In this document: piece by piece, positions 13,484 through 60,085 of the stretch | How the letters are laid out: each line of letters starts with the position of its first letter | Numbering within the stretch: position 1 is the first letter of the stretch | From: Dipteris shenzhenensis | Taxonomy: Eukaryota | Reading direction: 5' to 3' (one strand) | Length of the DNA stretch: 64,000 bases | Assembly (NCBI GenBank): GCA_047967505.1 | Contig: CM106538.1 | The notes under the pieces: model-generated | The model's input: only the letters and a program-made list of their open reading frames with translations | What the model was told of the DNA's origin: nothing | Database searches by the model: none | Translations under genes and position numbers: made by a program

Positions 13484-14720
13484 TATTAACGTCCACAAGA
13501 GGCCTCGCAGGCCTATGGGACAAAGTACGGAATCAAGTAACTCATACAGACCACTGTGGGTTGGGGCAAAGGGCTCACTAAGGCCCTTGTTGAGTACTAA
13601 AATGCTATACTAGTACAAAATAGCAAAAAAGTAGCAAAATAGCATGAGGGTGGCATGAAAATATCAAATGCTTAGGGCTATAGTCCCAAGTGCATGAACC
13701 GGCTCCACGTATCCAGGCTCCATGGTGGCTCTTTGATGAGATGGTCTCATCGATCTTTGGATCTGATGGGCTATGTCAAGAGTGATGCCTCGCCTCGGTT
13801 GATCTCCCCTAAGGAGAACTGAAATAGGTTGAACCTCAATCGTGTGTGCTCTGGTCGCCTGTCGCACCGTGTACGGTCTCTGTGTCCCTCGCCTGGTAGT
13901 CTCTCTCCATTGATCCATATATCTCTCATGTTGGCTAGCTCCTCCTCCTCTATCCCAAAGTGCCCGCGGGTTGAGTCAAATGCATAGAAATCCGTGACTT
14001 GTCTCTGCACTTGGTCTAGCTTGGTATCCTGTGGTGCGGTGGTCCCATCCTCTTGCTCTTTGATATGTCATAGTAGTGTCTCCCTGTGTCATTGCATCTC
14101 CATTAGGAAGAGCTCAATACGGACCTGCCTGCTCCTGGAAGTGGATCAGTCGTGAGAGTGGGCCAAAGCCGTACCCCTCTTGAAAAAGGCAGTGGTAGCG
14201 CCCTTGGATCTCATAGTAGGCTGGGCAGACACATATAAAGTGCCCCTCTGTCTCGACCGCCCCCATCGTGCATAACCTGCAAGTCCGTTGCTCTCTGGGT
14301 ATGCGTGCAGCTCTCCTTGTCTCGATCCTCAATTGATGGGACGACCCGAAGAGAGTCGGTGAGAGAGGGCATCCCTGCTTTACTCCGATCGTGCTCTCAA
14401 TCCAGTCTGATAGGCCTCCTGGGACACGAACTCTCCCTCTGACGGACTCGTATAGGCTCACCATTCCCCAGAACATAACCTCTGGAATGTGGATATCCTG
14501 TAGTCTCTTGATCATGGGGGATCATGGGACAATGTGGAAGGCCTTCCGAAAGTCTACAAAACATGCGTAGACTTTGTGGCGTCTCGATTTCGCCTCCTCA
14601 ATGACAGTCCTCAGGGTGAAGATGTGGTCTAGAGTGGAGTGCTGTCTCTGGAAACCTGCTTGCCCTAGAGCACGCTGCTCATGTGTCTCTGTATGGCTGC
14701 TGATCTCCCTCTCCAGTATC
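13483..14720 (-). mobile_element. RTE-X-like LINE family 2, internally deleted copy with intact 3' end
   Basis: GQAGF...VDFRKAF...GVKQGCPLSPTLFG fused to SSHQLRIET...CRLC...EGHFICVCPAY (C-terminal CCHC), C-terminal extension, 3' stem-loop, (TC)n tail. Confidence 0.85.
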
Positions 14721-14799
14721 AAAAGTGGTTGTAGTAGAGCTGGGTCTTGGTGGGGAACTCTTGGTCCCCCCCCCCTCTCCCCCCCCAAGTGCAAGATGT

Positions 14800-15830
14800 G
14801 TGGAGCTAGAGGAGATCTAACCGTATGATGCGGTTAATCTCATCTCGTGGGAGTCGCTCTAGTCGGGCCAAGGCGCCATGCCCTTGTGTGAGTCATGCTC
14901 TGGTTGCGTGGGTCATCGTGAAAATTGGCCCTGTGAAAACTGCACCCAAGTATGTGTAGGACTGCACAATCTCCACTGGCTGACTCTTGTATGTAAAGCT
15001 ACATCGGTGAAGCACTGTGTAGAAGGTGTTGAAGATCATGACCTTGGTCTTCCCAAGGTTAACCATCAGGTCTCTCTCTTTGCAGAACACCTCTAGGGCA
15101 TCTAGATGTCTCTGTAGTCCCTCTGTTGAAGATGACAGGAGGACTATGTCATCTGCATATAGTAGAATCTGTATCATCAAGTTTGCTAGTGGTGCTCCCT
15201 CGCCTCCTAGGCGGTCTATGAAAGATGTAATCTCATCAATGTAGAGCCCAAAGAGAGTCGGTGAGAGAGGGCACCCCTGCTTTATTCCGATCGTGCTCTC
15301 AATCCAGTCTGATAGGCCTTCTGGGGCACGAACTCTCCCTCTAACGGACTCGTATAGGCTCACCACTCCAGATCAAAACCTGTGGAATCTGCATATCGTG
15401 TAGTCTTTTGATCATGCGGGATCGCGGGACAGTTTTGAAGGCCTTCGGAAAGTCTACAAAACAAGCGTACACTTTATGGCGTCTCGACCTTGCCTCCTCA
15501 ATGATAACCCTCACGGTGAAGATGTGGTCTAGAGTGGAGTGCTATCTCCGGAAGCTTGCCTACCCCAGAGCACGCTGCCCATGTGCCTCTGTATGGGTGT
15601 TGATCTTCCTCTCCAGTATCAATCCATAGATCTTTTGGCCAGTGTGTGGCCAATCATGAGAGTGCGATAGTTCTCAGTATCCATGGGGTCGCCTGCCTTG
15701 TGTATCGGTACTATGGTGGTGGTACTTGATGAGGGTGGGAAGCCGTGACATATGGCGTGATTGAACATCTGTGCTAGTACCAGAGCCAAAACCTCCTGTC
15801 CATGATCGAAATGCTCAATCTGTAGCCCCT
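14800..15830 (-). mobile_element. RTE-X-like LINE RT fragment (second copy)
   Basis: PIHKAGDPMDTENYRT; GIKQGCPLSPTLFGLYID; LLYADD; VNLGKTKVMIFN; YTYLG. Confidence 0.9.
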
Positions 15831-15833
15831 CAT

Positions 15834-20493: not shown

Positions 20494-21716
20494 TACTTCT
20501 CCTCCTCTAAGAACTTACTCCTGAGTTCGCTAAAAAACCCGAGAATGTCCTCTGGAGGTTCTGTAATGTCTCCCATGTCGCATCCTCCTCAACACGATCC
20601 TTCCACTTGATCTTGTATTCCGTGATAGTTCTATTACGAATTTGTCTTTCACGAAATTCAAGAATACACTAAGGTTCGTGTGGAATAAAAGTCAAATCTG
20701 TAACTTCTATTATTTCTTGAGGAGAAACAAGTTGATCATCCACACCCAATAACTTTTTCAGTCTTCTGACATAAAATACTGGATGTACTTTAACATCAGG
20801 AGGCAATTCTGGTCGATATGCAACTGGTCCAATTCTTTTAATGACCTTGAACGGACCACAATATTTGGGGGATAACTTCGGAACCAAACTAGTACTTAGG
20901 CTCTTGGATTCCTTGGGAATTCGCAAATATACCATCGTTCCTTCAGAGAACTCTCTAGGTGAACGATGTCTATTAGCATAAAATCTGACCCGATCTTGGG
21001 CACTTCTAATAGACTCCTTGGCAAACTCCAACATTTCCTGCATGTCTAGCAAGAAGGTCTTTGTAGCATCATTTTGGATTCCCTTTAACCCAACCATAAC
21101 TGGTGACTTAGGTTGAAACCCGTACATAAGCATAAAAGGACTGTAACTAGTACTCGAATGCTTTGCATTGTTATAAGCAAATTCTATCATAGGTAGATAA
21201 TCTTCCCATGAAGACTGTCTCTTAGAAACATATGCCCGAAGCATATCTTCAACCAATTGGTTGACCGTCTCTGTACTGCCATCGGATTGTGCATGATCTG
21301 AGGAACTCATACTTAGAGTAGTTTCTAACTTCTCAAAAACAAGTGTCCAAAAGTTACTTGGAAATTTGAGTCCTTGTCACTGACTATGTCAGAGGGCAAA
21401 CCATACAGCTTAAACAAGTGGTCCACAAACTCGTGAGCCAGCTGAATAGCTGAAATAGTTGTTCTAGTAGGTAAGAATCGAGCCATTTTTGTCAGACGGT
21501 CGACTATGACCCAAATGGAGTCATGACCCTTGCGCGTTCGAGGCAAACCAGTAATAAAATCCATGGAAATAATTTCCTAGTTATTACCTGGAATTTGCAA
21601 TGGCTGTAATAAACCCGCACTCCTAAGGCGTTCTGCCTTAGTAACCTGACAAACCCGGCAACGTACCACATAGTTTTCAATAAATGCACACATTTTAGGC
21701 CAATAAAAGGTATGCT

Positions 21717-22901
21717 TCACAAGAGACAGAGTCCGATGTATACCCGGATGTCCAGCACTAGGAGCATCATGACACTGGATTGAAGTTCTAGAACATCTGG
21801 CACACAAATCTTTCCATTCCGGAATAGCAAGCTGTTCCTAATCATCCAGTGACCTCCCGCCGCCTGTACCGTAGGGGGCACAATCCCTGAGTCTTGGTCA
21901 ACCATGGAGCTCCCATCCTGGACCTTTTGCCTATAAGAACTGAAATGACTATCAGTTGCGCAAAGCCCTCTCAAGGATTGAAATAGGTCTGAGGATATTT
22001 CCGTAAATGACATAGCATTTACAAACTTGACTCGACTTAAGGCATCCGCCATACTATTCAATGAACCTTTGCGATAACGTATTTCAAAATCAAAATCTTG
22101 CATTAATTCTGCCCATCTAGCTTTCCGTCCCCTCAATTCAGACCCATCACACACATACTTGATTGACTGATGATCGGTCAATACAAGAAACTTCGAACCA
22201 TACAAGTAGTGTCTCCAAACCTTTAGTGCATACACGACTGCATAGAGTTCTTTTTCTAGTGTGGGCCAACGATATTGGGTGTCATCTAGCTTCTTACTCT
22301 CAAAAGCTACGGGTCTGCCCTCTTGGAATAAAGCTGCCCTAATCGCAAAATCACTCGCATCGGCCTCTAAAACATAAGGCCGGGTAGGATCGGGTAATGC
22401 AAGAACGGGTACTTCCTTGATAGTTAACTTCAAGGTTTCAAAAGCCTTGTTTAATGCGTCATTCCAAGAGATCGGTTGGGTAGACCTGCGTCCACGACCT
22501 TTCAATATGTTTGTCAGGGGTGCCGTGATGTGTGAATAATCACGCTCAGACTTCCGTAGAAATACCGTAAATCCTAGGAAAGAACGAAGTTGTTTCATAG
22601 TCTGAGGGATAGGCCATTCTAAAACCTTCTGGATACGATCTAGATCAATGCTAATACCTTCAGAAGAAATCTTGTGTCCTAAGTAAATGATCTCCTTCAT
22701 AAAGAAGTCACATTTACTCATCTTGGCATAGAGCTTATGCTGTCTTAGAATAACTAAGATAATTCGGAGGTGTCCTATGTGACCCTCTAGCGTTCGGCTA
22801 TATACCAAGATGTCATCTAAGAACACTATAATGTATTTGCCCAGAAAATCTCGGAACAAATCGTCCATCATTTGCTGGAAGGTGGCAGGAGCATCGGTCA
22901 A
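21717..22901 (-). pseudogene. Gypsy A RT/RNase H open segment
   Basis: 394-aa ORF: APATFQ, VFLDDILVYS, EADASD, LTDHQS, ADALSR. Confidence 0.9.
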
Positions 22902-23796
22902 ACCAAAAGGTAATACAAGAAACTCGTAGTGGCCATGCCTAGTTCGGAATGCGGTTCTATCTTTGTGTTTAGCATAGATACGGATTTAGTGATAACCCAT
23001 ACGTAAATCAATCTCAGTGAAATACTTCGTTTTGGCCAAACGGTCTATTAGATCATCGGAACGAGGTAGAGGGTATCGATTCTTAATTGTCACTTTATTC
23101 AATCGTTTATAGTCTATACACATTCTCCATGTAGCATCTTTCTTCTTTCTTAAGAGGACAGGTGCTCCCCAAGGTGATTTACTTGGGCGAACATAGCCCA
23201 TATTCAAATAATCTTGTAGCTGTGAAGCTAACTCATCCTCCTCAAGCTGGCTCATCCTATAAGGTGGAACACTAATAGATTGAGCCCCAGGTACTAAGTC
23301 TATGTGATGATCTACTGCCCGTTCTGGAGGTAAACCTTCCGGCAGTTGAGCAGGGAATACATCCATGAAATCATCTAACAACGTTCTCAATTCACGGTGT
23401 TCAAACACACTTAAATCATTCTTGTTATTAACAGATATAACAAATGAAGAAAGCGGAATCAAAACACACTGATAGACATCATAATGAGAAGTGTTTAATA
23501 TATTCCGAAGCTGCATCGCAGATACAATAGGTCCCTGAGAAGAGGGAATGCTATTACACTGAATACAAAATTGGGTGTCCGTATCCAAAAAAGAAAGAGT
23601 ATGGTCCTTTCATCCAATCCGAATATCGTGGGTTTTAAACCACTCTATTCCGATTAACAAGTCCACATGCTCTAAGTGCATGACATAGCATGTAAGAGCC
23701 GTTGTGTAATCTTGAATCCAGATAGAAAGCGCTTCAATCTTGCGATCCCAAAACTGCTTCCCAGCTGGAAGCTTCACCTCATAGGAGTGATCGCTA

Positions 23797-32939: not shown

Positions 32940-35519
32940 TGGCCAGTTGCCTATACGTACTCCATTCTATGAATGAATCAATTGCTCATTGCCTTCATAC
33001 TTATGCCATTGTCTCTACCTCTTGTTTACCTCCATCATGCTTCCATGCTTGCACCAACAGACCAATCACATCATATGGTCACGGATTTCTGGATATGGAT
33101 AGGATGCACGATCTTGTCATATATAATGGTCTTAAGCTATGGCCATCCTCAGGTGGCTTCACTTGTTTTCCACATGGGGGAGGGTCTAGCGTAGTATGGG
33201 ATCCCCTATCTTCACTCGCACATCATTGACTTCTCCGTTTCACCACCCCCCCCGGGGGTAGATCACATCTACCTTTTTTTCAGCATCTCCACACCTCGTC
33301 TCACGGCACCATCCACGACATCAATCACACACACCACTTATCATGATATACACTTCGATCACGAGCTAGCACCCGCATATTCTGCACGGCTGTATACATT
33401 ACTCACGTATATTGTTCACATACCCTTGCTAGAGAGACGTTGTTGCCTTGATTAGCCGTTCACTCCATGAGGCTGCTCTTCGCGCATTTGCATACACCAC
33501 GTGCTCCACTAAACCCGTACCTCTTGGCTCTATGCCTTGCAATAGTTGGTACGATGAGGAATGTAAGGCTCTTTGCCGATAGCTCTGACTTGAGGCCAAA
33601 CATAGCCTTCCGAGTGAACTAGACACGATACGTGAGTATTGTAGTCTAGTACGCCGGAAGAAGCAAGCATTTGTTTGCCGAAATGAGGAGTTACTGAACA
33701 TTTTGTTCAGCAACAACTCCAAAGAGTTTTGGCACAAGTTCTTTGAGCGGAAATCACCTTCACCTCTCGCCTACACTCAAGTTTGGCACATGTATGTGCA
33801 CAACCTCTATGATGTTTCTCACCAGCCCGCCCTTAACCTCTCACACTCACCCTACCCCACCACTTGCACTTTGTTTACCAGAGGTCGTGTCAAGGATGCG
33901 GCATTTACCCCATGAGGCTGAAAAACTATTGGACCATTATGATTGGGAATGTCATGTCCAAGATCTATGTATTTGTACTTGACTCAGAGGTCAGCTGGTT
34001 TGCAGAGATGCAGGGACTCAGGGCAGAGGGGCAGGTAGGATTTTGGCGGCCCCATGATACCATGGATCACCTATCCCACTTAGGAGTGTCATAGAGGAGG
34101 CTAGATCACAGAAGCAGAGGGTGGACTGTTGCTTTGTGGATTTTCGTAAAGTTTTTTGACACAGTTCCACGAGCCTGTCTCATTAGGTGCTTGTAGGAGT
34201 TGGGGTATGACCAAGAGATCATTTGGGTGGCTATGGCGCTTTATGAGAGAGTCTTAGGCCGAGTTCAAATAGGTGTCGGGTGGTGGACAGAGGAGATTAT
34301 GAGTACTATTGGGGTCAAACAAGGTTGTCTGTTATCACCAACCTTGTTTGGCCTCTACATAGATGAGCACAAGATCTTCATGGGAGCACTTGGGGGGGCT
34401 GGGTGCTCCTTCGCCTGTACTCTGATTCAGGTCCTCTTGTACATCGATGATGTGGTACTGATGTCCTCTTCCCAAAGGGCCTCCAGAGACTTTTGGATGC
34501 ATTGCAGGCCTTTTGTGAGTCACATGATTTGAAGGTCAACCTTGGCAAGACCAAGATTATGGTCTTCAACACATCTTGAGCAGCCATGCATATGGAGCAA
34601 TTCACATTTGACAGATCCCCAGTTGAGATCGTCTCCTCATATACGTGGGTGTTGTCTTCTTTATCCCAATTTTCACGATGAGACCGACGATGTAGACCTG
34701 GCTGAGCAGGGGATATGCCTCACCTGCCCGACTGGAGAGACAATGCTGCTACTCACACTTTTAGGACGCTCGGACCAAGGCTCTTCTCTTTGACTCCTTG
34801 GTTCGACCATGCATCATGTATGGTAGCCCTTGTTGGGAACCTGACCTCTCAGACATAGAGTGGGCTCAAGTAGAGTGACTATAGATTCTCTTGCTCTCAC
34901 GGATGATCCGGGGGAACCATCGGTGCCACATCATATCATTCAAGCTGAGTTCGGCGCTTCTCCACTGTAGCTAGATGCGGCATTCCAGACCATTACTTAT
35001 CTACACTGTGTCAAACAGTATGGAGATTGCACATTGGGGAGACGTAGGCTGCCATGGTTGGCGTTTATGAGTCTTGCAGATGAAGGGAACGAGAGAGGCT
35101 GGTATGCACAGACACGTAGGTGGTTCGAGAGATTGGGGCTTCACATGGATAGATTACCCCCCTTCCAGTACAGCCTAGACGCCCCTTCTATCCCACTTGG
35201 GTATCACGAAGTCAACTAGGTCATTCGCGAGATCTCTTACAGCTACACACATTCAGGACTTGGTTGGAGCCCAGAGAGCTTCCAGTGAAGCTCAGCTTCT
35301 ATAGAGATCATCTTTGAGGAGGGCTTCATTGTCCTGCCAGAGTACACTCATATTTACTTACCGCACCCATCAAGATCTCCAGACTCCATTGGGCAGTTTC
35401 GAGTATCATCACACTGACTCCATATCGAGAGCGGACAAGCTTAGGGGATACCCAGGGAGTACCGCTGTCACGAGGACGTGAAATTATGGGACTTTTGATT
35501 TGCGACTCTCGTTGTAGGA

Positions 35520-36370
35520 CAGAGAAGAGATGGAGATAGGTGGAATTTGTAGGCAGAGCTTCAGGCAAAATTTGGGCAGTTTACGTGGCTGTTTGTAGGT
35601 GGACTTTTCTTGTGTGAAGAGGCGACTCTTTGGAGCAGAATGGTGGGCATAGGAGCATCTCAAAATGGTGGGCTATTCCAGCAGAAATGGTGCGGGCAGT
35701 ACAGGCAGATGCAACGTCTGGTACGGGCATGTACGGCGGATCAGCAGGCTGGTATGTGGCGCACCAATCTGTATGGATGTACGGCTGATTTGCAGCTGCT
35801 AAAGGCATAGGTCCGGGCTGAAGGGGCTGAGAAAGAGAGCAACGATAAAGAGGATGGAAGAAGATAAGGGTGAAGAGGATAGGCAGATTTGCGGGCAAAG
35901 AAAGAGGGCAACGATGAAGAGGATGGACAACTCCACGTTGAGGCTCAAGCAAGGAGAGGAGTGGGCAGCCTTCCAAGGAGGAGGAGGGAGAGTAGCTTCA
36001 TTGGCCTCCCTCACCTCAACCTCTTGGAAAGGCAAGGAGAGACAAGGCTAGGAGCTAGGCTCTGATACCACATGAAGGGACATGTGGAAGGAGTGGAATG
36101 CCAAGCTAGCTAACTAGGAACGCGGAATGGAAAGAATAATGAAAGACAAAATGAAATAAAAAGAAAGTACAAGTGCAAGAGATAACCAAAGTACTCACAA
36201 TGTATTGATAACTTGATGTTGACAACTATGAAAAGACTCAAGACTAGTACAAGACTATAAAGTGTGAGCCTCTAGACTCTAGAAAGTCACAATGCATATG
36301 GGATAATCTCCCATATGACACGTGGCACTGTCTAGGACTCATTAGACTATAAAATAAGTCCTAGGGACCC
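35520..36370 (-). mobile_element. LTR retrotransposon 5' fragment (LTR end, PBS, leader)
   Basis: Minus strand ...CTTCA tg TGGTATCAGAGCC at ~36058-36075. Confidence 0.65.
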
Positions 36371-37060
36371 TGAAGAACTCCGCCTGAATCAACAAGCTGT
36401 GAGACGCTCTCCCTACTATGTTTGGGGCCAAGCGTAGAGAAGAATGGCTTGTTGACCCTCCTCCTGTTTGAGTCCAAAATGACTCACTAGCATGAAAGGC
36501 ATACTTTGCTGTCTGATCTAAAAGTGACTGTTGCAACAAGGCGCTCTTGAATCCAAGCATCTGTAGGTCTCTTCTGCTCTTCCCTTTGGAGGGCAGCCAA
36601 CTGCTGGCAGATACCTATCTCACGCCTGAGGACTCACAACTCCTGATACGAGCAACTGAAAGATAAAAGTCACTAATATCAAAGAGGGCTGCGGCTAAGT
36701 TTGAAGGAGAAAGCTTCCCATCCTGCAAATGAGATACCTAGGTCTTCAACATTGTCTCTGTAAGGCCCTCCTCTGCATAAAAGAAATTTGGAATCCTAAC
36801 ACTGGCAGAGTGGCCCCTCACATGAGGATTTGAGACCATCAGAACCACTGGAAAATGATCCGAAGTGGACACCCCAGCTGCAATGCAAACAGTACCACCT
36901 TTGTCAAGAGCCCAATCATCCACATAAAATCTGTCAATCCGCGCATGTATAGGCATTTGTAGTCTCCTGTTCGTCCAAGAAAATAGGAGAGAATGTGGTT
37001 GAGTGTGAAAACCATCATTGTGCCGAGCATCTCTGCCACTGTATTGAAAAAGGAAGGCAT
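36370..37060 (-). mobile_element. L1 ORF2 fragment (AP endonuclease C-terminus)
   Basis: HARIDRFYV...STSDHFPVVL. Confidence 0.8.
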
Positions 37061-40000
37061 CCCATGCTGCTCTCTCTAGGGAGTAAATGCCACCTTCCCC
37101 TTTTGTCTAAGGGAGTGAATGATTTTTTGGAAGGAAGTGCTCTCTTGGTCACATATTGCAGATTCTTGGATTTGACTTCATATTCCAACAGTTACTAGGC
37201 AATTAATTCTTAGGGCCAAAGTGTGCAACAGGGGGGCCAAAGGAGTGTTGTAATTAAAAATTGATAATTTTAGCACAAGACTCCAAAAAGAGCCCAGAGC
37301 CCTTCTTTTGGATTCAGAAGGCCAAAATCAGTTCTAGGAGGAGCCAGGGCCAGTTCCAGTAGTGCATTCAGGGCCTGCTAAAGGAAATCGCATCTGCTCC
37401 AGGAGCCTGTTGCATATTGCAATTTCAGCCAGGGTATCCTTTGCAGATTGCGATTTCACTTCCAAGACCTCCGGGCTGTGCCAGGTGACTACGTCTTGTT
37501 CTGGAGCTATTTCCAGGTGTTTTCAGGCTGCTACAGGGAATTGCGATTTGTTTCCAGGTGTTCCCAGGTTGTCCAGGCTGCCATAGGAGATTGCGATTTG
37601 CTTCAGGCTGTCCAGGCTTTGCAGGGAAACTTACGATTTTTTTTCTAGAGTCTTCCGGGTGTTGTAGCTGATTTTGGTAACTTTCCAGGCGTGGGTGTTC
37701 ACTTCTAAGTTGCTGTTGGGGTTGTGCCATGGTAGAAATAGCTTTTCTCTGTAGGATCTAGGGTTTTCCAGCCTCGGGTGACCTTTCTTCTATGGATATT
37801 GGGTAGAAGAAGGCTTGTCTCGCCTGATTGGTTGCTGGCTAGTTATTGTGTTTGGGTTTCTTTCCTCGCGATCCTTTTGGGTTTCTTTCCTCGCGATCCC
37901 ATTGAAGCGGCTAATCCTTCGGATACAGCTACACTTCCCGAATCTAGGGAGGGAACCTATCTTCATCCCTCAGACTTCCCGGACCTAGAGAACTTGATCT
38001 TCGTTTATGAACCTGTCCATCGTGACGTACCTTCGGGACTCTTCATCGTATATGTGCTATGCTTAGTGTTGGAACCGAAAAGAATGAAGAGTGTTCCGAG
38101 ATTTGTTACCCCATCCCCCAATCCAATTCCGACTAGATCCGATTTCGTGTGACTTCATGGTGAACATGATCTGCCACCCCTCAAGTATGTAAGATATGTT
38201 TCTTTTCACCGTTCGAATCCCATTCAGTGCAATGCACGTAATTGCCAGTGCCGTTGAAAACTAGTGTTTTCCCTGTAAGGAGAAGCGCTATGCGCCCTGT
38301 TGAAAGGTTGATTTAGGCTGTTGGGCAGTGGCGACGGAGGCTATAGATTGAGGCAACCCGTTTGGAAGTGCTTTGTCGATTGATTGCACCAGAGTTTGGC
38401 TGTTGAGGTCTTTGTCTTGCAGTTGCTCAGCTGTGTTTGGTTGGTTGGGCACTTGGTCGTGCAATTGCAGGCGTGGCTCAGACAGTGGATGCTATTGGGG
38501 TCTCTGTTGCATGCTTTGGTTGGGTGAGGATACATGATTGTCTAGTGATTGGATGCCGTTCATCGTTTGAAGTTGAGCAGGGAATTACAGGGTGGGCTGG
38601 ACGGGAAGTCTGCGGGCGTTGGTTTTCCTGTGGTGCAGCTTCCCAGAGACCTTTGTAATCAGCCGCTTGGCTTCAAATGAATGTTAAATAAATACCGCGA
38701 GGGGTGCCAACGTTTGGGGCCAATTGGTGTCCTTGTTTCTAAGTAGGAGCACTCTAGCTCCCCTGTGATTTATTCTGTGGTGCATATTGTTTGCCAATTT
38801 GTTGTGTATGCTGAATTAAGTGGATCCTACCACCCTTTACGTTGTTGAGGCTGGTTTCAACCACCTAGGTATGCTATGCGACCGGCAAGAGGTTGAGTCA
38901 AAGGAGCACTTTGCACTTCGATGCCGAGTGTACTACGAGATCCGTGGTCACTATCATTGTCTCTTTTGGGCCCCTCTCCAGACTCCGTTCGTATCCAAAC
39001 GTGGGGTGCCTTGTTGCTTTGATTCATGAGGCGGTTCGACATAGAGAGCACTTACTTAGGATACAGAGGCAGGCCTTAGACACATTGCCTGACTCTTCTC
39101 AGAGCAGGATCACGGAGTTCTTCCACACAGTCATCGATTGCAGGCGTAGTAGGGACCGGAGCCCATACTCGACAACGGACAGACACATAGATCACATTGG
39201 GTGACCTCCCATCCTTGTTTAGCACACCCCACAGGTGTTACAGTAGCCTTGGTTAGGAGCAGAGCCACGGCCAGGAGATCAAGACGCACAACGTCCACAG
39301 ACAGTCGCCAACGCGTCATCACTAGCTACGCATCAGCAGGACCTCGTCCCCTCAGGCCGCATTGTGCTGGCCAAAGCCAGCATGGCCTGGTGATGTGGAT
39401 TGATTGACATGATAATGAGAATTGTGATGATGATGATGATGATGATGATGATGTCATTTTATTGATGACATGACTATGCACTACTTAGCACTTAGCATTC
39501 GGCATGGGTGACCCTTTCTACTTGTTGATTAGGTTTTCTACCAGTCTCATAGACCCATCGGTCTTGCGTAGACTATGATAAACTTTGTCTCTCTCTCTCT
39601 CTCTCTCTCTCCCTTCCTGTCTCTCCCTTCCACTCTTCTATCGCCTCTCTAATCTGCCCGTAACCCATTTTCTACACAAAGGAATTGTTGCAAGGTATGC
39701 AAGTGAATGGTACCAGGTATCTGTTTCATAAGTGCAATGTGCTTTTGCAAGTTGCTCGTGTTGTGAGGTAGGAACTGTCGCATGATTCAGCGTGTAGGAT
39801 GTAGGTATTCAATTCGCAGCACTCAGTGCATGCAACCCCCAAAGGGTGAAGGAGCTGCAAAAGGGAGCGGGGGGGGCTGCTCTGGGTTGCCTGTGAATGA
39901 ATTGGAGTGAATTGGAATCCCTGGTTTGTTTGAGAACATAGTGGTATACTGCTATAATAAATTCACTAGAACATGAGGCCTGTAGAGGGCAACAGGGTGG

Positions 40001-44761: not shown

Positions 44762-44828
<67 letters not shown>
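44762..44828. repeat. (TA)n(GA)n compound microsatellite
   Basis: Directly visible; abuts a LINE 3' end. Confidence 0.95.
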
Positions 44829-44832
<4 letters not shown>

Positions 44833-45275
44833 TTAAAGTCTTCAGAAGACCGATGGGTCTATGAGACTGTGAAAATCCTGATACAAGCGAGCTGTGAGGG
44901 TGGAGCTACTAAATGAGCATCCACACCAATGCAGAATGCAAAAAAATGCAAAATGGTAGTACTAAGTACTGAGTACAACATAGTCATGTCGGTGGTCGAC
45001 TACGTATCAGTCACATCATCATCATCATCATCATCATCAAGACATCAGGGGTGGATGAGGCTCTGGAAGCATGAAGTCAACGATAGAGTGCTGTCGACCA
45101 CTCGAGGGTGCAGTCCTGTGACGTCTCCTGGTCATAGCTCTATGAATAACAAGGGCTACAGTAACTCCTGTCGGCTGTGCTTTGACGCGAAACATGGAGG
45201 AAATATCCCCAAGTGTAATATGCGCGCCCGTCCTTTGTCTATGCTATCAAGTCACTGGCTCTGGGTCCCGATCAG
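44829..45275 (-). mobile_element. 5'-truncated RTE-X-like family 1 copy a
   Basis: HITLGDI, PTGVTVALV, (GAT)n and conserved 3' end AGTCTCATAGACCCATCGGTCT. Confidence 0.85.
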
Positions 45276-45307
45276 GAGGGGGGGAGAGAAAGAAAGAAAG
45301 AAAGAAA

Positions 45308-45784
45308 TTTTATTAGAGTCTTCGGAAGACCGATGGGTCTATGAGACTGAAAGAAAACCTGATACAAATCATAGTAAGGGTGGAGCTACGAAAACGAGCA
45401 TCATCACCCGTGCTGAATCCTAAGTCTGATCATACATAATCAAATACATCTGAGTGTGACAATGAAAAGAAAAAAGACTGGAGCAGAGCGGAATCCTCTG
45501 TATGTTATGTCGCCCTGGTTGGTGCATAGCTGGTGATGGGACGCTGGCCTCAAGGGGTGCCGTGCATCTCGGTCTCCTGGACGAGGCTCGACGCAAGACT
45601 AGAGCCACCGTGACTCCCGTGGGACGTATCCCGAATCTAAACAATGACAGGAGGTCCCCCAGAGTGATCTGTGTGTCCCCTCGATGTCTCGTCGGGTCGG
45701 GGTCTGTGTCACGTCTGCGGCTAGAGACTGGACGATCAATGTCACTCAATGGGAAGAACCCTGTGATCTTGCTTTGAGAGGTGT

Positions 45785-45788
<4 letters not shown>
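45308..45788 (-). mobile_element. 5'-truncated RTE-X-like family 1 copy b
   Basis: QSKITGFF, QITLGDLL, PTGVTVALV, conserved 3' end, (TTTC)n tail. Confidence 0.85.
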
Positions 45789-45849
<61 letters not shown>

Positions 45850-45852
<3 letters not shown>

Positions 45853-46430
45853 ACTAAAGTCTTCGGAAGACCGATGGGTCTATGAGACTGTGAGAATTCT
45901 GATACAAACAAAGCGTGAGGGTGGAGCTACTAAATGAGCATTCACACTAATGTAGAATGCAAAAAGCTAGTGCTAAGTACTACATAGTCATGTTAGAGTG
46001 GTACGACTACACATCAGTATCATCATCATCATCATCGTCATCATCATCATTGTCATCATCCTTCCTCCTGCTCATCATCAGTTCATCTAGGTGGATGAGA
46101 CAACGGAAGCATGAAGTCGGCGATAGAGTGCTGTCGGCTGCTCATGGGCGTGGTCTTGTGTCGTCTCTTGGTCATAGCTCTGCGCCTAACAAGGGCTATA
46201 GTGACCCCTGTCGGTTGAGTTTCGGAGAGGGGATATCCCCAAGTGTAATTTGTGCGTCAACCCTCTGTTTGAGCTATTGTCTCACTGGCTCTGGATCTCG
46301 ATCGTGTCGGGGCCTCGTAGTATGGGGGTCCACATGCTCTGGCTGGAAGAACTCCATGATCAAGCTCTGAGAAGGGTCTACCAAGGAGGAGGTCTGCTCC
46401 TGTCTCCGAGACTGAGTAGACGCTCGCGGT
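45850..46430 (-). mobile_element. 5'-truncated RTE-X-like family 1 copy c
   Basis: QSLIMEFF, QITLGDI, PTGVTIALV, (GAT)n, conserved 3' end, (TC)n tail at 45789-45849. Confidence 0.85.
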
Positions 46431-46450
46431 GAGAGAAAGAAAGAAAGAAA

Positions 46451-47708
46451 GTCATATTAACGTCCGCAGGAGACCTCACGGCTCTATGGAACAAAGTACA
46501 AAATGTCAAAAAGACTTACAACATCTGGTAAGCCAGAGGGTCGAGGAGTGCACATGGCATCTCAGCTCGATTATCATATCACACCAATACATACTAGGAC
46601 TATAAAACTAATAGAAGTGGCCTTCATAACATCAGTTTAAGAGTGAGAGCCTTTAGGTTTAGATTTGAAATCTCTAATTAGTGTTGTTCCATCTCGATAC
46701 ACAGTCCATTTTCCAGCTTTATGTGCATCTTTCATTTATGTGAGCTTGACACTCCTCTGCTTGAGCTGAGTTAAGGTGAATTCCTCAGAGATCCAAATCC
46801 TTGTGCCCTTCAACTTGTTTGTTTGTCAAAGAATCTTAATTCTTCTCGCTCTCTCCTTGAAAAGCACTTGTACTTGCATTCTTGTTTGGGAGACACAGCT
46901 GATATCGTTATGATCCCACTCTACTTGTGGTATTTCCTTCTTGAGCCATGCAATCCTCTCATTTGCTGTGTAAACTTCTTCTTCATTAAAAAGGCCAAGG
47001 CGATCCTTGGGCAGTCCTCCAATACGTAGTATCTTCTTATTAGGTGCTATAGCCTGCTGCTCTTTTACTTCTGTGTACAAATCCACTTTATTGAGTTTGC
47101 TTTCCGCAACAATAGCCATCTCTTCCTCGGCTGAACTCACCTGGGCGTTGATCATTTCCTTGACCTTGGAGACAAGAGTTGGAGCTGGTGGAAATGTGCT
47201 GAATTTCTCCATAGCTTCTGCAATAATTTCTTGCTTGCCTTTGTTCTCCATCTCGTTCACCTTCTGCTAAGAGCTGCAACTAGTAGCCTGAGCTCTCTGA
47301 CTTCATGCTCCAAGTGGTAAATGTGCTCCTGATGGTCTAATCTGATCCTTTTCCTGTAGGTCAAAGCATAGGGACTGGGTGTTGCTGCAATGTCTGAGTA
47401 AGAGGGCTTACTGACGGGGGTCGTGGTGAAAGTCTTCACCTTCAGGAAATCCATGGTGGCCTTGCAGATTCTCCAAGCCCTTCACTGAAGCTAACCCCCC
47501 AGGCTGAGCCAAGGGCTCAGCTCAGCCGGGGGTAACAAGCTGTATGGAGGCCGACGACCTGTATACGGGCTAGGTGGTACGGACAAGCTGTGTATGGCGA
47601 CCTGCTGTACGGTGCTGTTGAATGGCCTGTTGTACGGGCGGCGCTGATGTACGGGCTGATGTATGGGCTGCTGTACGGGCTGAGCAGAGAGCTGAGCGGG
47701 TGAGGGAG

Positions 47709-47869: not shown

Positions 47870-48460
47870 GCCCTTGTATTAAAGCCCTCTTGAGACCCTT
47901 CAGGATCTATGGGACTGGTGGTCTCTATAAAAAATAGTGATCCTTTACATTTGGTGAATTAGAAGACTCTTTGGGCTAATCCAAGTCGTTTCGGTGTTCC
48001 AAAACTTCTTTAGGTAGCTCCCTAGCTTTGTAGCTGGCTGTTCCAATAGATGTTTCAGGCTGCCTCTGCTGTTTTCATACCTTTCTCTGATGTCTGCATA
48101 GGCCTGGCATCTTAGGAGTACATGCTGCTCATTTTCTACCTCTCCCATGTGGCAGATTTTGCATATTCTTTCTTCTCTTCGGACCCTCAGTCTTGTCCAC
48201 CTTCCCTTCTCCACTTCTAGGCTGGTTTTCATTTTGCATATTAGATACTTTTTGAACATGGATATGTCTTCTCCAAGGTAGTTTTTGCATCCCATAGCTA
48301 CCCATTGGATTAATTTCTTTTTTATAGAACTGCATTTTCGCACCCAAGTCTTGCCATAGTTTTTTTAGCATATTCTGTATCACTAACTCTTCATCTCACA
48401 TGTATCCTCTAGAATATCAGCAGCTGTTATACCCATAATTCCATCCATTTCATCCATTCT
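47870..48460 (-). mobile_element. RTE-X-like LINE family 3, 3' fragment
   Basis: LEVEKGRW...REERICKICHMGEVENEQHVLLRCQAYADIR; 3' stem-loop at 47883-47916. Confidence 0.8.
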
Positions 48461-53400: not shown

Positions 53401-56400
53401 AGCAAAGTCAAATAATGCTCCCATTTGCTTTTGTGGTCTGAGACATAGCATTTAAACATATCCAAGATGGTAGAGTTTTCCTGCTCCGATTGTCCATCAG
53501 ACTGAGGGTAAAAAGATGACGAATCCTCGGATCTCTATCACTGAATATGGATTCAGGCATCCCATGATACTTGAAGACATGCTGCAGAAACAATTTGGCC
53601 ATTTGATCTGCTGTAATTTTCTTTCTTACTGGCACAAAGTGGGCTTGTTTGCTAAATCTGCAAATTATTGTCCACAATCCATCATGTCCAGTAGGAGTAC
53701 GTGGAAGATCAAACACAAAATCCATAGCTATGCTTTGCCATGGTCTATCCGGAATTGGCAAAGGGTGTAACAACCCAGGTGCCTTCTGCCTGTCAAACTT
53801 TACTTTATGACAAACCATGCATGTTCTCACATATTCTTTCACATCTTTCCTCAAAGATGGCCAATAAAAGTATTGCTCCATTGCTGTAATTGTTGCTGTA
53901 ATTCCCCTATGTCCTGCATATGGAAGAGCATGACTTTCCATTATGACTTTCTATCGCATCTGATCAGTGACACAGAGTCGTCCATGCATCAAAATGAAAC
54001 CCTCTTTCAACATATAGTGATCATGCCTTTGACCATCAGAAAGCTGATCATAAATAGTTGAAAAATCAGCATAATTAACATATTGATCTTTCATCACATC
54101 TAACACATTGTTGTAAGCAATGCTCACTGCTGAAACACTGGGTTTCTTGGAGACTGCTTCAAGTTGTGGTTTCCTGGAAAGTGCATCAGCCACGACATTT
54201 TTGTTACCCGGCACATGTACAATTTGAAAATGAAACATTGAGAGGAAGTTAGCCCATCTCATGTGCTTTTCAGATAATTTTCTCTGCGTGAGAAAATATC
54301 TAAGTGACTGATGATCTGTCTGCACATAAAGATCAGCTCCAAGAAGGTAATGTTTCCATGTGGTTAAAGCATGTATCACTGCTAACATTTCCTTCTCGTA
54401 TGTCTGCAAGTACAATTCAGCATGTTTGAGAACTCTACTCTCATATGCAACCACTCTGACATCTTGCATCAAAGTGCCTCCTATGCTGTTCCCACATGCA
54501 TCACAAGTTACAGCAAAGGGTTTTGCAAGATCTGGCAAGATAATAACGGGTTCAGAACACAACTTTTGCTTGAGGTCTTCAAAAGCTGCATTTTCCTTTG
54601 GTCCCCACCGAAACGGTATAGCTTTCTTTTGTAAAGCATGCAAGGGAGAAGCAATTTCTGCAAAGTACTTTATAAACCTCCGATAGTATGAACACAACCC
54701 AAGAAAGCTTCTGACTTCATGCATATTTTTCAAAATTGTCCAACTCCTTATGGCCTCAACTTTTGCAGGATCCATCTTGACTCCATCCTTTGACACTATA
54801 TGACCGAGAAAATGAATCTCATGCATAAAGAACTCACTTTTCTTGGTGTTTATCAATAGCTTGTGTCTTTTCAACTCTTGAAATACAATAGTGAGATGTT
54901 TCCTGTGCTCCTGCTCATTTTTAGAGAACACAATGATGTCATCGAAGAAAGTGCCCACAAACTTTCTGTGTGCTCTAAAAATTCTGTCCATCATTCTATT
55001 GAAAGTAGCAGGTGCATTAGTCAAACCAAAAGGCATCACAAGGAACTCATATAAGCCAAATGAAGTGCGGAAGGCAGTCTTGTAGACATCTTCAGGCCAA
55101 CGGTTCTTAATTGTGACTTTATTCAAAGCCCTATAATCAATACACATTCTCCAACTGCCATCCTTCTTTTGTACAAGCAACACAGGGGAACAGTAAGTTG
55201 GCTGTATTAATTACTTCACTTGTGACATTATCTCTTCCTGTTGTGCCTTACTGACACGATAGGGAGGTATATTAGGCGGTGAGCTTCCTGGAATTATATC
55301 AATTTGATGATCCTCGGGCCTCTTGGGAGGTAATTCTTGAGGAAGTGCATCTGAGAAACAATCCTGAAAATCTGAAATAAAAGCAGCCCTTTCTCTATCT
55401 AAAGCAGAAAGAGTAGAGCCTTCCTGAATTGGTTGGTTGTCCTCTTTGACAAAAATCAAGTACGCTGAAATATGACGCTTTATTACATTGGAAATACAAG
55501 AAGCTGAAACTACAGGGATGGAGTCGCCTTTCAACTTTACATCAAGTACATGATTTTTGCCTCTATGAGTTAAAGAAATCTTCTTGTTTCTCATCTGCAC
55601 ATCAGCCCCCACCCTGTACATCCAAGGCATCCCAAGCAAAGCATCACACTTTGGCAAAGGCATAATGTAGAAGTCCTCTGCATCCTGATATCCCTGGATA
55701 TGCATCCTCAACTTGCCAATGATAGGAGTGACAGGTGTGTTGAGTTCAGGGTTGGCCATATCACACATGCCAGATGGCCCCATTTCCTCAGGCTTGATGC
55801 CAAGCCTTCTTGCCATATCAGGAGTTACGAAATTCTCCTTTGCCCCAGAATCAAAGAAAAACAAACAATTCTGATTTCTGATTTTTCCCCATGCTCTGCA
55901 CATCTCAGTCTTTTTCGTTTCTTCTTCATCATGTGCATGTGGCAAACTCCCAATCACATCTGGAAGAAGTCCTGCGGAAGGTTTAGGCCTTTTGCCCTTC
56001 CGATCAGCCTGTTTATCATGATTCTTATCATCATCTGACGTGTCTCTTTCTTGAATGGGCAATCATGAGAAGTGTCCCTCTCCTTTGCATATAAAACATT
56101 TGTTTTGCTCCATGAGTGACTTTTTATCTTCATCAGATAACTTGGTACGGGGCTGTTTATTAGGCTGTCCACGCCTTTGACCAGCTTTGAATTGGGCTTT
56201 TCCTTCCTTTTGAAACGGTCGTTTGCCATTATTTTTATTTTCAGATTTGATGTCCTTATCCTGGTGTTTGGCAGCCCATTTGTTGTCTTCTTTCTTGCTG
56301 TCCATAAAGCCCAAATTCTTCTCCTGCATCCATGCATATGCTGTCCTTGCATTCTCAATTAATTGAGTCATAGAACCCACCTTGGTTTTGATGCAATAAT

Positions 56401-57616: not shown

Positions 57617-60085
57617 CACAGTTACGTTGAAATGCATTTCAGAGCCTAGCCAGGCTTGAAACGTCGTTTCAGAGAAGCCCCGTTTTCTGAAATGCGTTTC
57701 AGGGTCCTGAAACGGATGGCTGAAACGTTTCAGCTAAACTGAAACGCGTTTCAGAGCCTTGAAATGTGCTGTTTCAGACAACACATGCTGCTAGGTCTCC
57801 AAAATTACGCGAAATCCGCCGCCAGTCCCATTTTTTTTCTTTTTGCTTTCGATTTTGGCCTCCTTCCACTCCTTCAGTCTCATACTCTCTCCATCCTCAA
57901 GGTTTTCCAGCCCTGCTTCAGCCCCATTCACTCCTTTCCTCTCCTTTCTCTCCTGTAGCCTACTTCAGCCTTCCATCATCATCTACTCCCCTCCAGCCCC
58001 TCTTTCAGCCCTCTCTTTCAGCCTTCTGTTTCCTCCTCTTTCAGGCCCCACTTTCAAGTTTCAGCCCTCTCTTTCAACCCTTGGCTCTCTTTGCAGTTTC
58101 AGCCCCTCTTTCAAGCAACAAGCTTCCATGGCTTCAAGACACCCTACCCCTGAGTCTCATTCCGAGGTAGAATTCACCCAATCAGATTTTTGGTGGAGTC
58201 AAGTCGATCTCCTATGTGCCTACGACTCCAAGAAAGGAGGCCCTCGCAAGTTCATGTGCAGGCTTTGTGGATTGAAAAGAGGTGGGATTCCTGATAGGGT
58301 GAAGGCCCATCTTCTTGGCATCAAGGGAGAGGGGATTACAATATGCAATGAAATATCCGAGGAAGAGAAAGCAAGGTTGGCACGAGAGGTGGAGGCATTT
58401 CCTTCCGCAAAGAAAGGTAGGACTATTGCATCCCATGGAGGAGCTACTTCAGGTGCTCATATGGCTAGTGCAAAAAGGAGTCCTCTTCCCTCTGCTGCTG
58501 CTACTACAATTTCATCTTCTGGGAGTGCACATGTTCTTGGAGCTACAAGTTCTACTCCTACTGCGTCTCCTTCACCTCTCTCACCTACACGAAGGCAAAG
58601 CACCCTTTATACTGCATGGCATCCACAAAGGAAGGCACAGGTAGATGCAGCCGTGGCCTGTTTCTTTTACTCGAATGGGATTAGTTTCAATGTGGCACGG
58701 TCTGCTTATTTCAAGGAGATGGTGACTGAAATTACAGCCTTTGGGCCCACATACACCCCTCCCACTTTTGATGCATTGAGGGGAAAGCTTCTAGAGGATG
58801 AGGTGAAGGCAGTTAATGAGGCCATTCAGCCTGTTAAGAAGAAACGGCATACGTATGGGGTCACTTTGGTAGCAGATGGCTGGAGTGATGTACGTAGTCG
58901 ATCACTAGAGGATATTTTGGCATATTGTAGAGGATCTTCTTTTTACATACACTCCATAGAGTGCGGAGTACAAGAAAAAACAGCAAATGTTTTGATGCAG
59001 ATGTGGGCAGATGCAGTGGAGTATGTGGGCCCGTCTAATGTTGTGCAGTTTGTTTCAGATGGTGAAAATACCAATAGGGCTGCAGGTGCATTATTGGAAC
59101 AAAGATACCCCCATATTCAATGGAGTTCTTGTGTTGCCCATTGTTTGAATAATTTGTTGAAAGACATTGGCAAATTACCTCGGGTAAAAATTGTAATTGA
59201 TAATGGAAGAGAGAGAGTTGGGTTCATTACACGCCATCATTTTTCTCTCTCTTTGTATCGCACCTATGCAAGGAAGGAGCTTTTGAAGTATGCAGAGACA
59301 AGGTTTGCATACAATTATATGATGCTTCGCAGACTCATTGAAATGAGACCTGCTCTTAAACAGGTTGTGGCAAGCCCACAGTGGGATGCATGGCCCACTT
59401 CAAAGCAGGCTCTTGGGATATTGGTGTACGATTTGTGCATAGGCAGCGACGACTTTTGGGCTGATGCATCACACTTGTACGACTTGTGTAAGCCGATTGT
59501 CTTGTTGCTAAAAAAGGTTGATGGAGACATGTCTTTTATTGGCAAGGTATATGAGGGGATGGATCGTATGATAGAAAATATCAAAGTGTTAGAGAAAGAT
59601 CCCCACAGGTTGAAAGAGCTCGAGGACTTGGCTGTGACTAGGTGGAATCAGTAGTACTCTCCCATTCATGCGGCTGCATTTGTGTTGGACCCAGAGTTTC
59701 AACACAAGGCAACTGCACAACAAAGTGATGCAGAGGTGGTCCGTGGTTGGAACCTCACTCTTCAGAAGATGGTGCAAATGCCAGAGGCTTGCCGGACAGT
59801 GAAGGACCAGCTCGCCAATTACCGCAATAAGGAGGGCATATTTGGATGGCCAGATTCCCAGCATGCTCCTCCTCTTGTGAGCGCATGTGGAGCAGCTTTG
59901 CCCACATCCATACAAAGAAGAGGAACCGTCTCAAAGCACACAAGGCGAACGATCTTGTCTTTGTTAATGCAAACTTGCGTTTGCTTAACAGGATGAGACA
60001 GGAGTACACTCATGACAAGTTCATTGGTTTCCATAAACCTGATGACACCCTCACTGATGATGATGAGGGGACTTCAACACCTTGA
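57617..60085 (+). mobile_element. hAT DNA transposon, 5' terminus and transposase, 3' terminus missing
   Basis: Starts CACAGTTAC with GAAAC/GTTTC subterminal repeats; the 3' part is highly similar to 5490-6180 in inverted orientation. Confidence 0.92.
58128..60085 (+). pseudogene. hAT transposase (BED finger, DUF659/RNase-H-like core, dimerisation domain), disrupted
   Basis: CRLC...KAHL; DGWSD; VVQFVSD; CVAHCLN; ETRFA; in-frame TAG at 59652; deletion at ~59864; SCERMWS..HTKKRNRL. Confidence 0.92.

Follow-up and report, generated by a model that had tools for sequence, protein, structure and literature searches.

Two families of long interspersed nuclear elements (LINEs) that have left copies in a 64,000-nucleotide stretch of Dipteris shenzhenensis DNA (contig CM106538.1 of assembly GCA_047967505.1; the whole of this stretch is called the window from this point on) belong to a clade whose protein from open reading frame 2 (ORF2p) carries, beyond its CCHC knuckle, a short peptide of the kind known as a PIP box, the docking motif for the clamp protein PCNA. 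That this is a selected, exposed and canonical PIP-type peptide on ORF2p is well supported. We further consider it probable, judging from the sequences, that the motif is a functional canonical PIP box that lies in a flexible linker of a clade-specific C-terminal extension of ORF2p and binds PCNA. The pattern suggests that this LINE clade may hook onto the replication or repair machinery of its host by way of this motif, which looks like the tag of host proteins that grip PCNA. A wider proposal, toward which we lean only slightly, is that LINEs of one clade, present in ferns and in at least one lycophyte, acquired a high-affinity, non-degron PIP box of their own, independently of those of L1 and pogo, and that family 1 of the window added a second box to it.

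Four octapeptides, QSRITEFF (39100-39123, plus strand), QSKITGFF (45753-45776, minus strand), QSLIMEFF (46346-46369, minus strand) and, in family 2, QRQVTDFY (13984-14007, minus strand), had been picked out by a model working from the letters alone (the sequence-only reading), and a six-frame scan of the window with a regular expression recovered each of them at exactly these positions. All four conform to the canonical PIP sequence Q-x-x-[ILM(V)]-x-x-[FY]-[FY]. The pattern Q..[ILMV]..[FY][FY] occurs seven times in the six frames of the window, which by our estimate is about the number expected by chance, so that the raw count is meaningless on its own and was rejected as evidence. Four of the seven matches occupy the homologous place of LINE 3' ends in a DNA alignment. 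All four of these copies have decayed: frameshifts or stops interrupt the stretch that leads from the knuckle to the motif. The sequence-only reading had put a knuckle and a helix upstream of every motif; both are still present in copy 1 of family 1 and in the family-2 copy, while the minus-strand copies with motifs at 45776 and 46369 are 5'-truncated and have lost them. Moreover, the three motif-bearing copies of family 1 are of recent common ancestry and count as a single observation. The question of chance was settled with relatives from elsewhere and not within the window.

A search with the knuckle region of family 2 returned 32 proteins, among which P0001 and P0002 run past the helix, through QRQITDFF or QRRITDFF, and continue for a further ~85 residues. 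A second search with tails of this type returned 17 proteins, two of which end before the motif; all 15 that reach the site have Q-x-x-[ILM]-x-x-F-[FY] there, ~75 residues after the CCHC knuckle. Clusters of the tail relatives at 90% identity contain full-length members of 1102-1222 amino acids, and 32 of the 32 cluster members that reach the site have the motif, although they are near-copies of one another. In each of 12 long ORF2 proteins (759-1222 amino acids) a single strict match occurs, and it lies in the tail; none of these 12 ORFs has a second strict match elsewhere, including the place that would correspond to that of L1. The motif is in frame in all 12, which upholds the earlier assignment of the motif to ORF2 and the expectation that a consensus ORF2 does not stop before it. 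Its description as C-terminal has to be given up: the motif stands 70-93 codons before the ORF2 stop and is followed by a conserved basic and helical block.

Five full-length members were compared with Pfam. All five have an APE-type endonuclease (residues ~1-240), which is recognised as Exo_endo_phos in four and only as Exo_endo_phos_2 in P0058, and all five have a reverse transcriptase (RT; RVT_1) at ~448-780; neither RNase H nor any other Pfam family is found in these five at E<=0.01. With endonuclease and RT in one ORF, and with window copies that are 5'-truncated and end in (CT)n or (CTTT)n, the elements fit an APE-type LINE. The order along ORF2 is APE, RT, CCHC knuckle, helix, variable linker, motif, second linker, basic block and helices. 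The second linker is variable and either acidic or rich in Ser, Thr and Pro; the basic block that follows it reads G-[TV]-L-x-D-R-A-x-E-L-G-R-S-R-R-P-R. The conserved tail module made up of motif, basic block and helices has no Pfam family, and automated annotation thus leaves it unnamed. A third conserved element, (R/P)-P-M-(L/M/Y)-x-(I/L)-(L/F), lies in the last ~20 residues of many ORF2s, for instance as RHRPMMDLL, RPMLEIF or PPMYHIL; it was seen in proteins P0001, P0002, P0033, P0036 and P0043 and in loci L005, L007, L010 and L011, and it is missing from the shorter subfamilies that end in ...ILARHPECR.

To assess how well the motif is conserved, 14 tails were combined into a profile, and 1.84 billion cluster representatives (<=50% identity) were searched with it at E<=1e-3. 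There were 9109 matches, and the best 150 of the 9109 were aligned to the profile. Among these, 34 of the 48 representatives that cover all eight columns carry the strict motif. About seven of the other 14 are one-letter variants, such as QREIIDFC, KREIIDFF, THKITDFF and TQLITAFF, and some rows are misaligned with the motif lying elsewhere (P0146, which is among the 14, and also P0158 and P0219). The commonest residue reaches a frequency of.78 for Q,.78 for I,.71 for T,.85 for the first F and.81 for the second, as against.15-.40 in the six columns before and the nine columns after the motif, so that the expectation of conservation above background is borne out. Knuckle and helix columns are conserved about as well as the motif itself. 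The linkers vary among subfamilies in sequence and in length, the distance from FF to the G-V-T-L block being ~10 residues in P0147 and ~27 in P0037. A conserved island between variable flanks is the pattern of a short linear motif.

The same site was followed at the DNA level in metagenome contigs, where a scan with a 14-row alignment gave 80 loci of relatives, 56 of them aligned across the site. A frame was called open when it ran uninterrupted for 75 codons or more before the motif and for 55 or more after it, or to the end of the contig. The strict motif is present in 17 of 18 open-frame loci versus 14 of 38 broken loci (Fisher p=3.7e-5). The sole open-frame exception, L075, proved on inspection to have a stop at the place of the Q, and in several broken loci the Q codon has likewise turned into a stop. 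Synonymous codons are mixed in the 34 strict DNA rows (30 loci and the four window copies): Q is encoded by CAA in 25 and CAG in 9, T5 by ACA in 25 and ACG in 5, F7 by TTC in 30 and TTT in 4, and F8 by TTT in 23 and TTC in 10. Because loss of the motif is seen mostly where the frame is broken, while synonymous codons vary and the flanks diverge, the view that it has been kept by selection on the protein is, from these comparisons, well supported.

The consensus of the strict rows is Q-[RTSK]-x-I-T-[DEQT]-F-F, with T at position 5 in 31 of 34 strict representatives and D at position 6 in 15 of 34, and the 10 residues upstream have a mean net charge of +1.06. The pair T-D at positions 5 and 6 is described as accompanying high-affinity binding of PCNA, and a PIP degron is defined by a basic residue at +4 in addition (PMC8871960). 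Of 33 rows, 3 have K or R at +4, a position most often occupied by T (14 rows). Since the basic residue is so rare, the motif as aligned is by definition not a PIP degron, and it should bind PCNA without marking ORF2p for destruction by CRL4-Cdt2.

The tail of P0055 (its last 212 residues) was modelled with AlphaFold2 from 44 aligned sequences, with a mean confidence (pLDDT) of 77.6. The knuckle and a long helix extending to residue 114 have pLDDT values of 90-95. Residues 111-150 fall to 54-64, and within them a five-residue helix, 122-126, coincides exactly with ITDFF; later helices follow at 150-160, 171-188 (pLDDT ~87) and 197-204. In the predicted structure the motif is thus in an accessible, flexible linker with a short helix at its aromatic end, as is the case for PIP boxes. 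Foldseek found no match to the tail model in the PDB at E<=0.001, and a search of the ESM Atlas with the tail gave no usable match.

Named ferns with motif-bearing members are Adiantum nelumboides, Ceratopteris richardii and Pteridium aquilinum. The lycophyte member is P0138 of Diphasiastrum complanatum (QSQITSFF); a search with P0138 returned six proteins and no further named lycophyte member among them. Complete tails in the fern and lycophyte clade extend 148-187 residues past the knuckle. A tree was built from the 200 residues before the knuckle, the knuckle and the helix, with the tail excluded; P0024 and P0031 were left out by choice, and P0268 and P0270 were dropped as not matching the knuckle pattern. 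The 19 motif rows, which had been chosen for having the motif, form one side of a branch with SH-aLRT support of 99, and one change of state is needed. Sister to them is a small group that lacks the extension (P0008, P0010 and P0012 of Cryptomeria), and 20 more distant relatives are also without extension or motif. Branch lengths among the motif-bearing subfamilies are 0.3-0.8 changes per column. As the tree reads, the extension and the motif arose once, at the base of the fern/lycophyte clade.

Against solved enzymes, the RT of the fern LINEs scores 6e-24 with R2 and 4e-19 with L1 ORF2p, which is about equal and concerns the RT region only. Because the motif lies after the knuckle, has no match at an L1-like place, goes with an RT that is no closer to L1 than to R2, and is missing together with the extension from the outgroups, it is, on these comparisons, a gain separate from the PIP site of human L1. 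The independent acquisition put forward by the sequence-only reading therefore stands with respect to human L1; it does not extend to the two window families, which made no separate gain and share a motif ancestral to the clade. The sequence-only reading called the LINEs RTE-X-like. A knuckle at the C-terminus typifies groups of the I/Jockey/CR1 type more than it does RTE, and a literature search on RTEX and fern LINEs yielded no name for the clade.

What the peptide docks to is where alternative explanations have to be weighed. That the motif is common to kin copies by chance or phylogenetic inertia and has no function was already disfavoured, and we now give it almost no weight: the matches in the window are at chance number and many database rows are near-copies of one another, but the motif has persisted over 0.3-0.8 changes per column while its flanks were randomised, its synonymous codons vary, and it is lost mainly in copies with broken frames. 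Selection, however, is silent on the identity of the partner, and a selected docking peptide could serve the C-terminal domain of Rev1 (as an RIR motif), MLH1 (as a MIP motif) or a plant-specific factor instead of PCNA. PIP, RIR and MIP motifs overlap, and the last two need only the FF part. The prevalence of T5 goes beyond the minimal need of a PIP box and would suit such a reader; yet all four defining PIP positions (Q1, the aliphatic residue at 4 and the aromatic residues at 7 and 8) are kept together, and T5 with D6 is the high-affinity PIP signature as given in PMC8871960. A partner other than PCNA is, on balance, unlikely. We likewise find it rather improbable that the peptide is an internal structural element of ORF2p that packs on the RT, the knuckle domain or the element's RNA. 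The precedent for such an element is human L1, where the motif is described as a helix anchoring the tower to the RT (PMC10830420) and where PCNA is proposed to bind elsewhere (PMC7617806). In the fern proteins, the motif sits in the stretch of pLDDT 54-64 of a model limited to the last 212 residues, between fast-evolving linkers of variable length, which is the signature of a docking peptide. A PIP degron, by which ORF2p would become a substrate of CRL4-Cdt2 on chromatin-bound PCNA and the activity of the element would be limited, is very improbable: the frequency of T5 (31 of 34) and of D6 (15 of 34) speaks for it, but the defining basic +4 residue (PMC8871960) is confined to the 3 of 33 rows noted above, T being commonest.

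Several observations weigh against a clamp-binding peptide and have to be set beside those that favour it. That T5 is nearly invariant is more than a minimal PIP consensus asks for and may indicate another reader, and a match to the motif is unspecific, PIP-like boxes being able to bind Rev1 or Mlh1 as well. The strict pattern is missing from 14 of 48 representatives and from 25 of 56 loci, many of the exceptions being decayed copies that differ by one letter or by a stop codon. The rows are not independent, as they represent only a few subfamilies, and 14 of the 34 strict DNA rows share an identical 24-mer. The lycophyte case is one protein, P0138. Finally, the 'PIP box' of human L1 has been described as a structural helix (PMC10830420).

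If the motif is the PCNA-binding PIP box that we favour, it would insert into the hydrophobic pocket of host PCNA loaded on DNA. Such docking could tether the complex of ORF2p and RNA to replication forks or to repair patches, both of which offer nicks and free 3' ends. The docked clamp may in turn bring its own clients to ORF2p: RNase H2 would remove the RNA template, a recruitment proposed because the elements show no RNase H domain of their own, and completion of the insertion would fall to Pol delta, FEN1 and ligase. By analogy with many PIP-box tails, the RSRRPR block downstream probably acts in nuclear import or DNA binding.

The LINE copies of the window were mapped by tblastn with the full-length relative P0069 (residues 179-1056), and their parts are as follows.

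33068-35471, plus strand: family-1 copy 1, decayed ORF2 body that takes in the end of the APE endonuclease, the RT and the stretch leading up to the knuckle (tblastn)
38874-38966, plus strand: copy 1, remnant of the CCHC knuckle (LCDRQEVESKEHFALRC) at 38874-38924, then YYEIRGHYHCLF
39028-39060, plus strand: copy 1, post-knuckle helix EAVRHREHLLR, in a frame that differs from that of the knuckle
39100-39123, plus strand: copy 1, PIP-box-like motif QSRITEFF
39191-39332, plus strand: copy 1, decayed basic/helical tail block with ITLGD..., TGVTVALV at 39231-39254 and a second PIP-like box, QRVITSYA, at 39309-39332
39333-39611, plus strand: copy 1, end of the ORF and 3' untranslated region, comprising (GAT)n, the 3' terminal sequence common to the copies and, as a tail, (CT)n at ~39587-39611 (DNA alignment of three tails)
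45850-46460, minus strand: family-1 copy 3, 5'-truncated inside the helix, with QSLIMEFF at 46346-46369 and a second box, QHSIADFM, at 46110-46133
~45788-45849, minus strand: (CT)n following the 3' end of copy 3
45296-45787 (approximate), minus strand: family-1 copy 2, 5'-truncated ~3 codons before the Q of the motif and starting in the (CT)n of copy 3, with QSKITGFF at 45753-45776 and a second box, QRPITSYA, at 45523-45546 in a shifted frame; it ends in (CTTT)n
44788-45295 (approximate), minus strand: family-1 copy 4, absent from the sequence-only reading, 5'-truncated downstream of the first motif, with TGVTVALV at 45148-45171, a second box, QHSIVDFM, at 45070-45093 and a (CT)n tail at ~44788-44830
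13774-15831, minus strand: family-2 copy, rearranged, with RT at 14345-15831, knuckle CRLCTMGAVETEGHFICVC at 14225-14281, helix at 14071-14100 containing an in-frame stop, and QRQVTDFY at 13984-14007 in a frame that stays open to 13774
48011-48286, minus strand: copy of a third LINE family, with knuckle CKICHMGEVENEQHVLLRC at 48107-48163

All of these copies are dead. The ORF2 body of copy 1 has many frameshifts and is separated from its own 3' end by ~3.4 kb of foreign DNA (35472-38870). This insert holds a minus-strand ORF at 36738-37106 that ends in ...STSDHFPVVLMV and looks like the terminal part of another LINE's APE-type endonuclease. The tail block of copy 1 was likened by eye to P0227 and to the G-[VT]-L-x-x-A...RRPR block of relatives. 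On the minus strand, three 5'-truncated 3' ends of family 1 lie head to tail at ~44788-46460, with the start of each inside the (CT)n or (CTTT)n tail of the one before. This arrangement suggests that the element inserted repeatedly into its own microsatellite tail or that reverse transcription switched templates. The RT of the family-2 copy (14345-15831) is partly duplicated inside, residues 541-665 of P0069 matching it twice, and an internal deletion at ~14344/14345 joins RT motif sequence straight to the region before the knuckle. The third family has neither extension nor motif at 48011-48286, its frame stopping ~72 residues after the start of the knuckle; it resembles the conifer-like relatives P0008 and P0012 and ends near a (CT)n run.

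A second PIP-like box stands near the ORF2 stop of family 1; in copies 3 and 4 it precedes the stop by ~9-12 residues. P0227, the sole database relative of family 1, has the canonical QSSIARFF at this place (residues 160-167), and the lycophyte protein P0138 also ends with ARITSFY. As a general feature of the clade the second box was rejected: by eye, the other subfamilies have the helix R-R-R-L-Q-Q-R-I-R-x-I-L-A-R-H, with I or L in place of the aromatic residues.

The surroundings of the LINE copies are plant-like. The closest named proteins to the LINE RT of the window are from the fern A. nelumboides. Two Ty3/gypsy-type polyprotein stretches, at 20669-23609 and 53951-56062 (both minus strand), comprise protease, RT, RNase H and integrase SH3, and both contain long open frames. 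No open frame in the window is longer than that of 619 amino acids at 57795-59654 (plus strand), which has a DUF659 domain (E=7e-40), a domain characteristic of hAT-type transposases and of the domesticated proteins related to them.

Of the host cofactors of human L1, PCNA is the best known, and its mode of binding is now in dispute. The sequence-only reading took as its precedent a PIP box in human L1 ORF2p between endonuclease and RT, and such a site has indeed been reported, at residues 407-415, with the interaction described as needed for retrotransposition and as a route for recruiting RNase H2 (PMC10830420). The precedent itself is now disputed: in crystal and electron microscopy work the segment forms a helix that packs against palm and fingers (PMC10830420), and a 2025 study proposes a different, non-canonical PCNA site, the PUB motif, in the wrist domain of L1 (PMC7617806). 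Like human L1, the fern enzymes belong to APE-type LINEs with a link to the sliding clamp, a putative one in the ferns. Unlike that of L1, which lies between endonuclease and RT as a packed helix, the fern motif comes after the knuckle in a linker of low model confidence.

Our full-text literature searches, which did not cover Repbase, Dfam, subscription journals or supplements, found no account of a plant retrotransposon, or of a LINE other than L1, with a PIP box, in agreement with the sequence-only reading, which knew of none; in the papers found that link a PIP box to non-LTR retrotransposons or ORF2, the LINE cases are all human L1. Canonical PIP boxes on mobile-element enzymes are otherwise known from transposases. 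The motif of pogo also has I-T-D at positions 4-6. PIP boxes are reported for the pogo, Tigger and Lemi1 transposases, with the pogo transposase a PCNA interactor in a two-hybrid screen, and the same account calls their functional relevance unclear (PMC5371812). The fern LINEs resemble Drosophila pogo, Tigger and Arabidopsis Lemi1 in having such a box on the enzyme of a mobile element, but they are retrotransposons and not class II cut-and-paste elements. Retrotransposons would join the plant mobile elements with clamp-binding motifs.

Among cellular proteins, the PIP boxes of p21, Cdt1 and Set8 share with the LINE motif the form Q-x-x-[ILMV]-T-D-[FY]-[FY], a disordered setting and nearby basic residues (PMC8871960, PMC12366268). 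In contrast to the cellular PIP degrons, the LINE motif is without a basic +4 residue and is found on a retrotransposon enzyme and not on a cell-cycle regulator. Conifer-like and algal-like LINEs and the third family of the window share the APE, the RT, the C-x2-C...H-x4-C knuckle and the post-knuckle helix with the motif-bearing clade; the ORF2 of these short-tailed relatives, however, stops 64-95 residues after the start of the knuckle (at 172 in one case) and has no motif. A separate LINE lineage with a textbook, exposed PIP-type motif, kept under selection in subfamilies up to ~0.8 changes per column apart, would provide independent evolutionary evidence that LINE integration benefits from the clamp. 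Should the PCNA-binding reading be true, target-primed reverse transcription would recurrently, and perhaps generally, require coupling to the clamp, and the fern LINEs would be a cleaner system in which to ask what PCNA does for a LINE than human L1, the PIP site of which is disputed.

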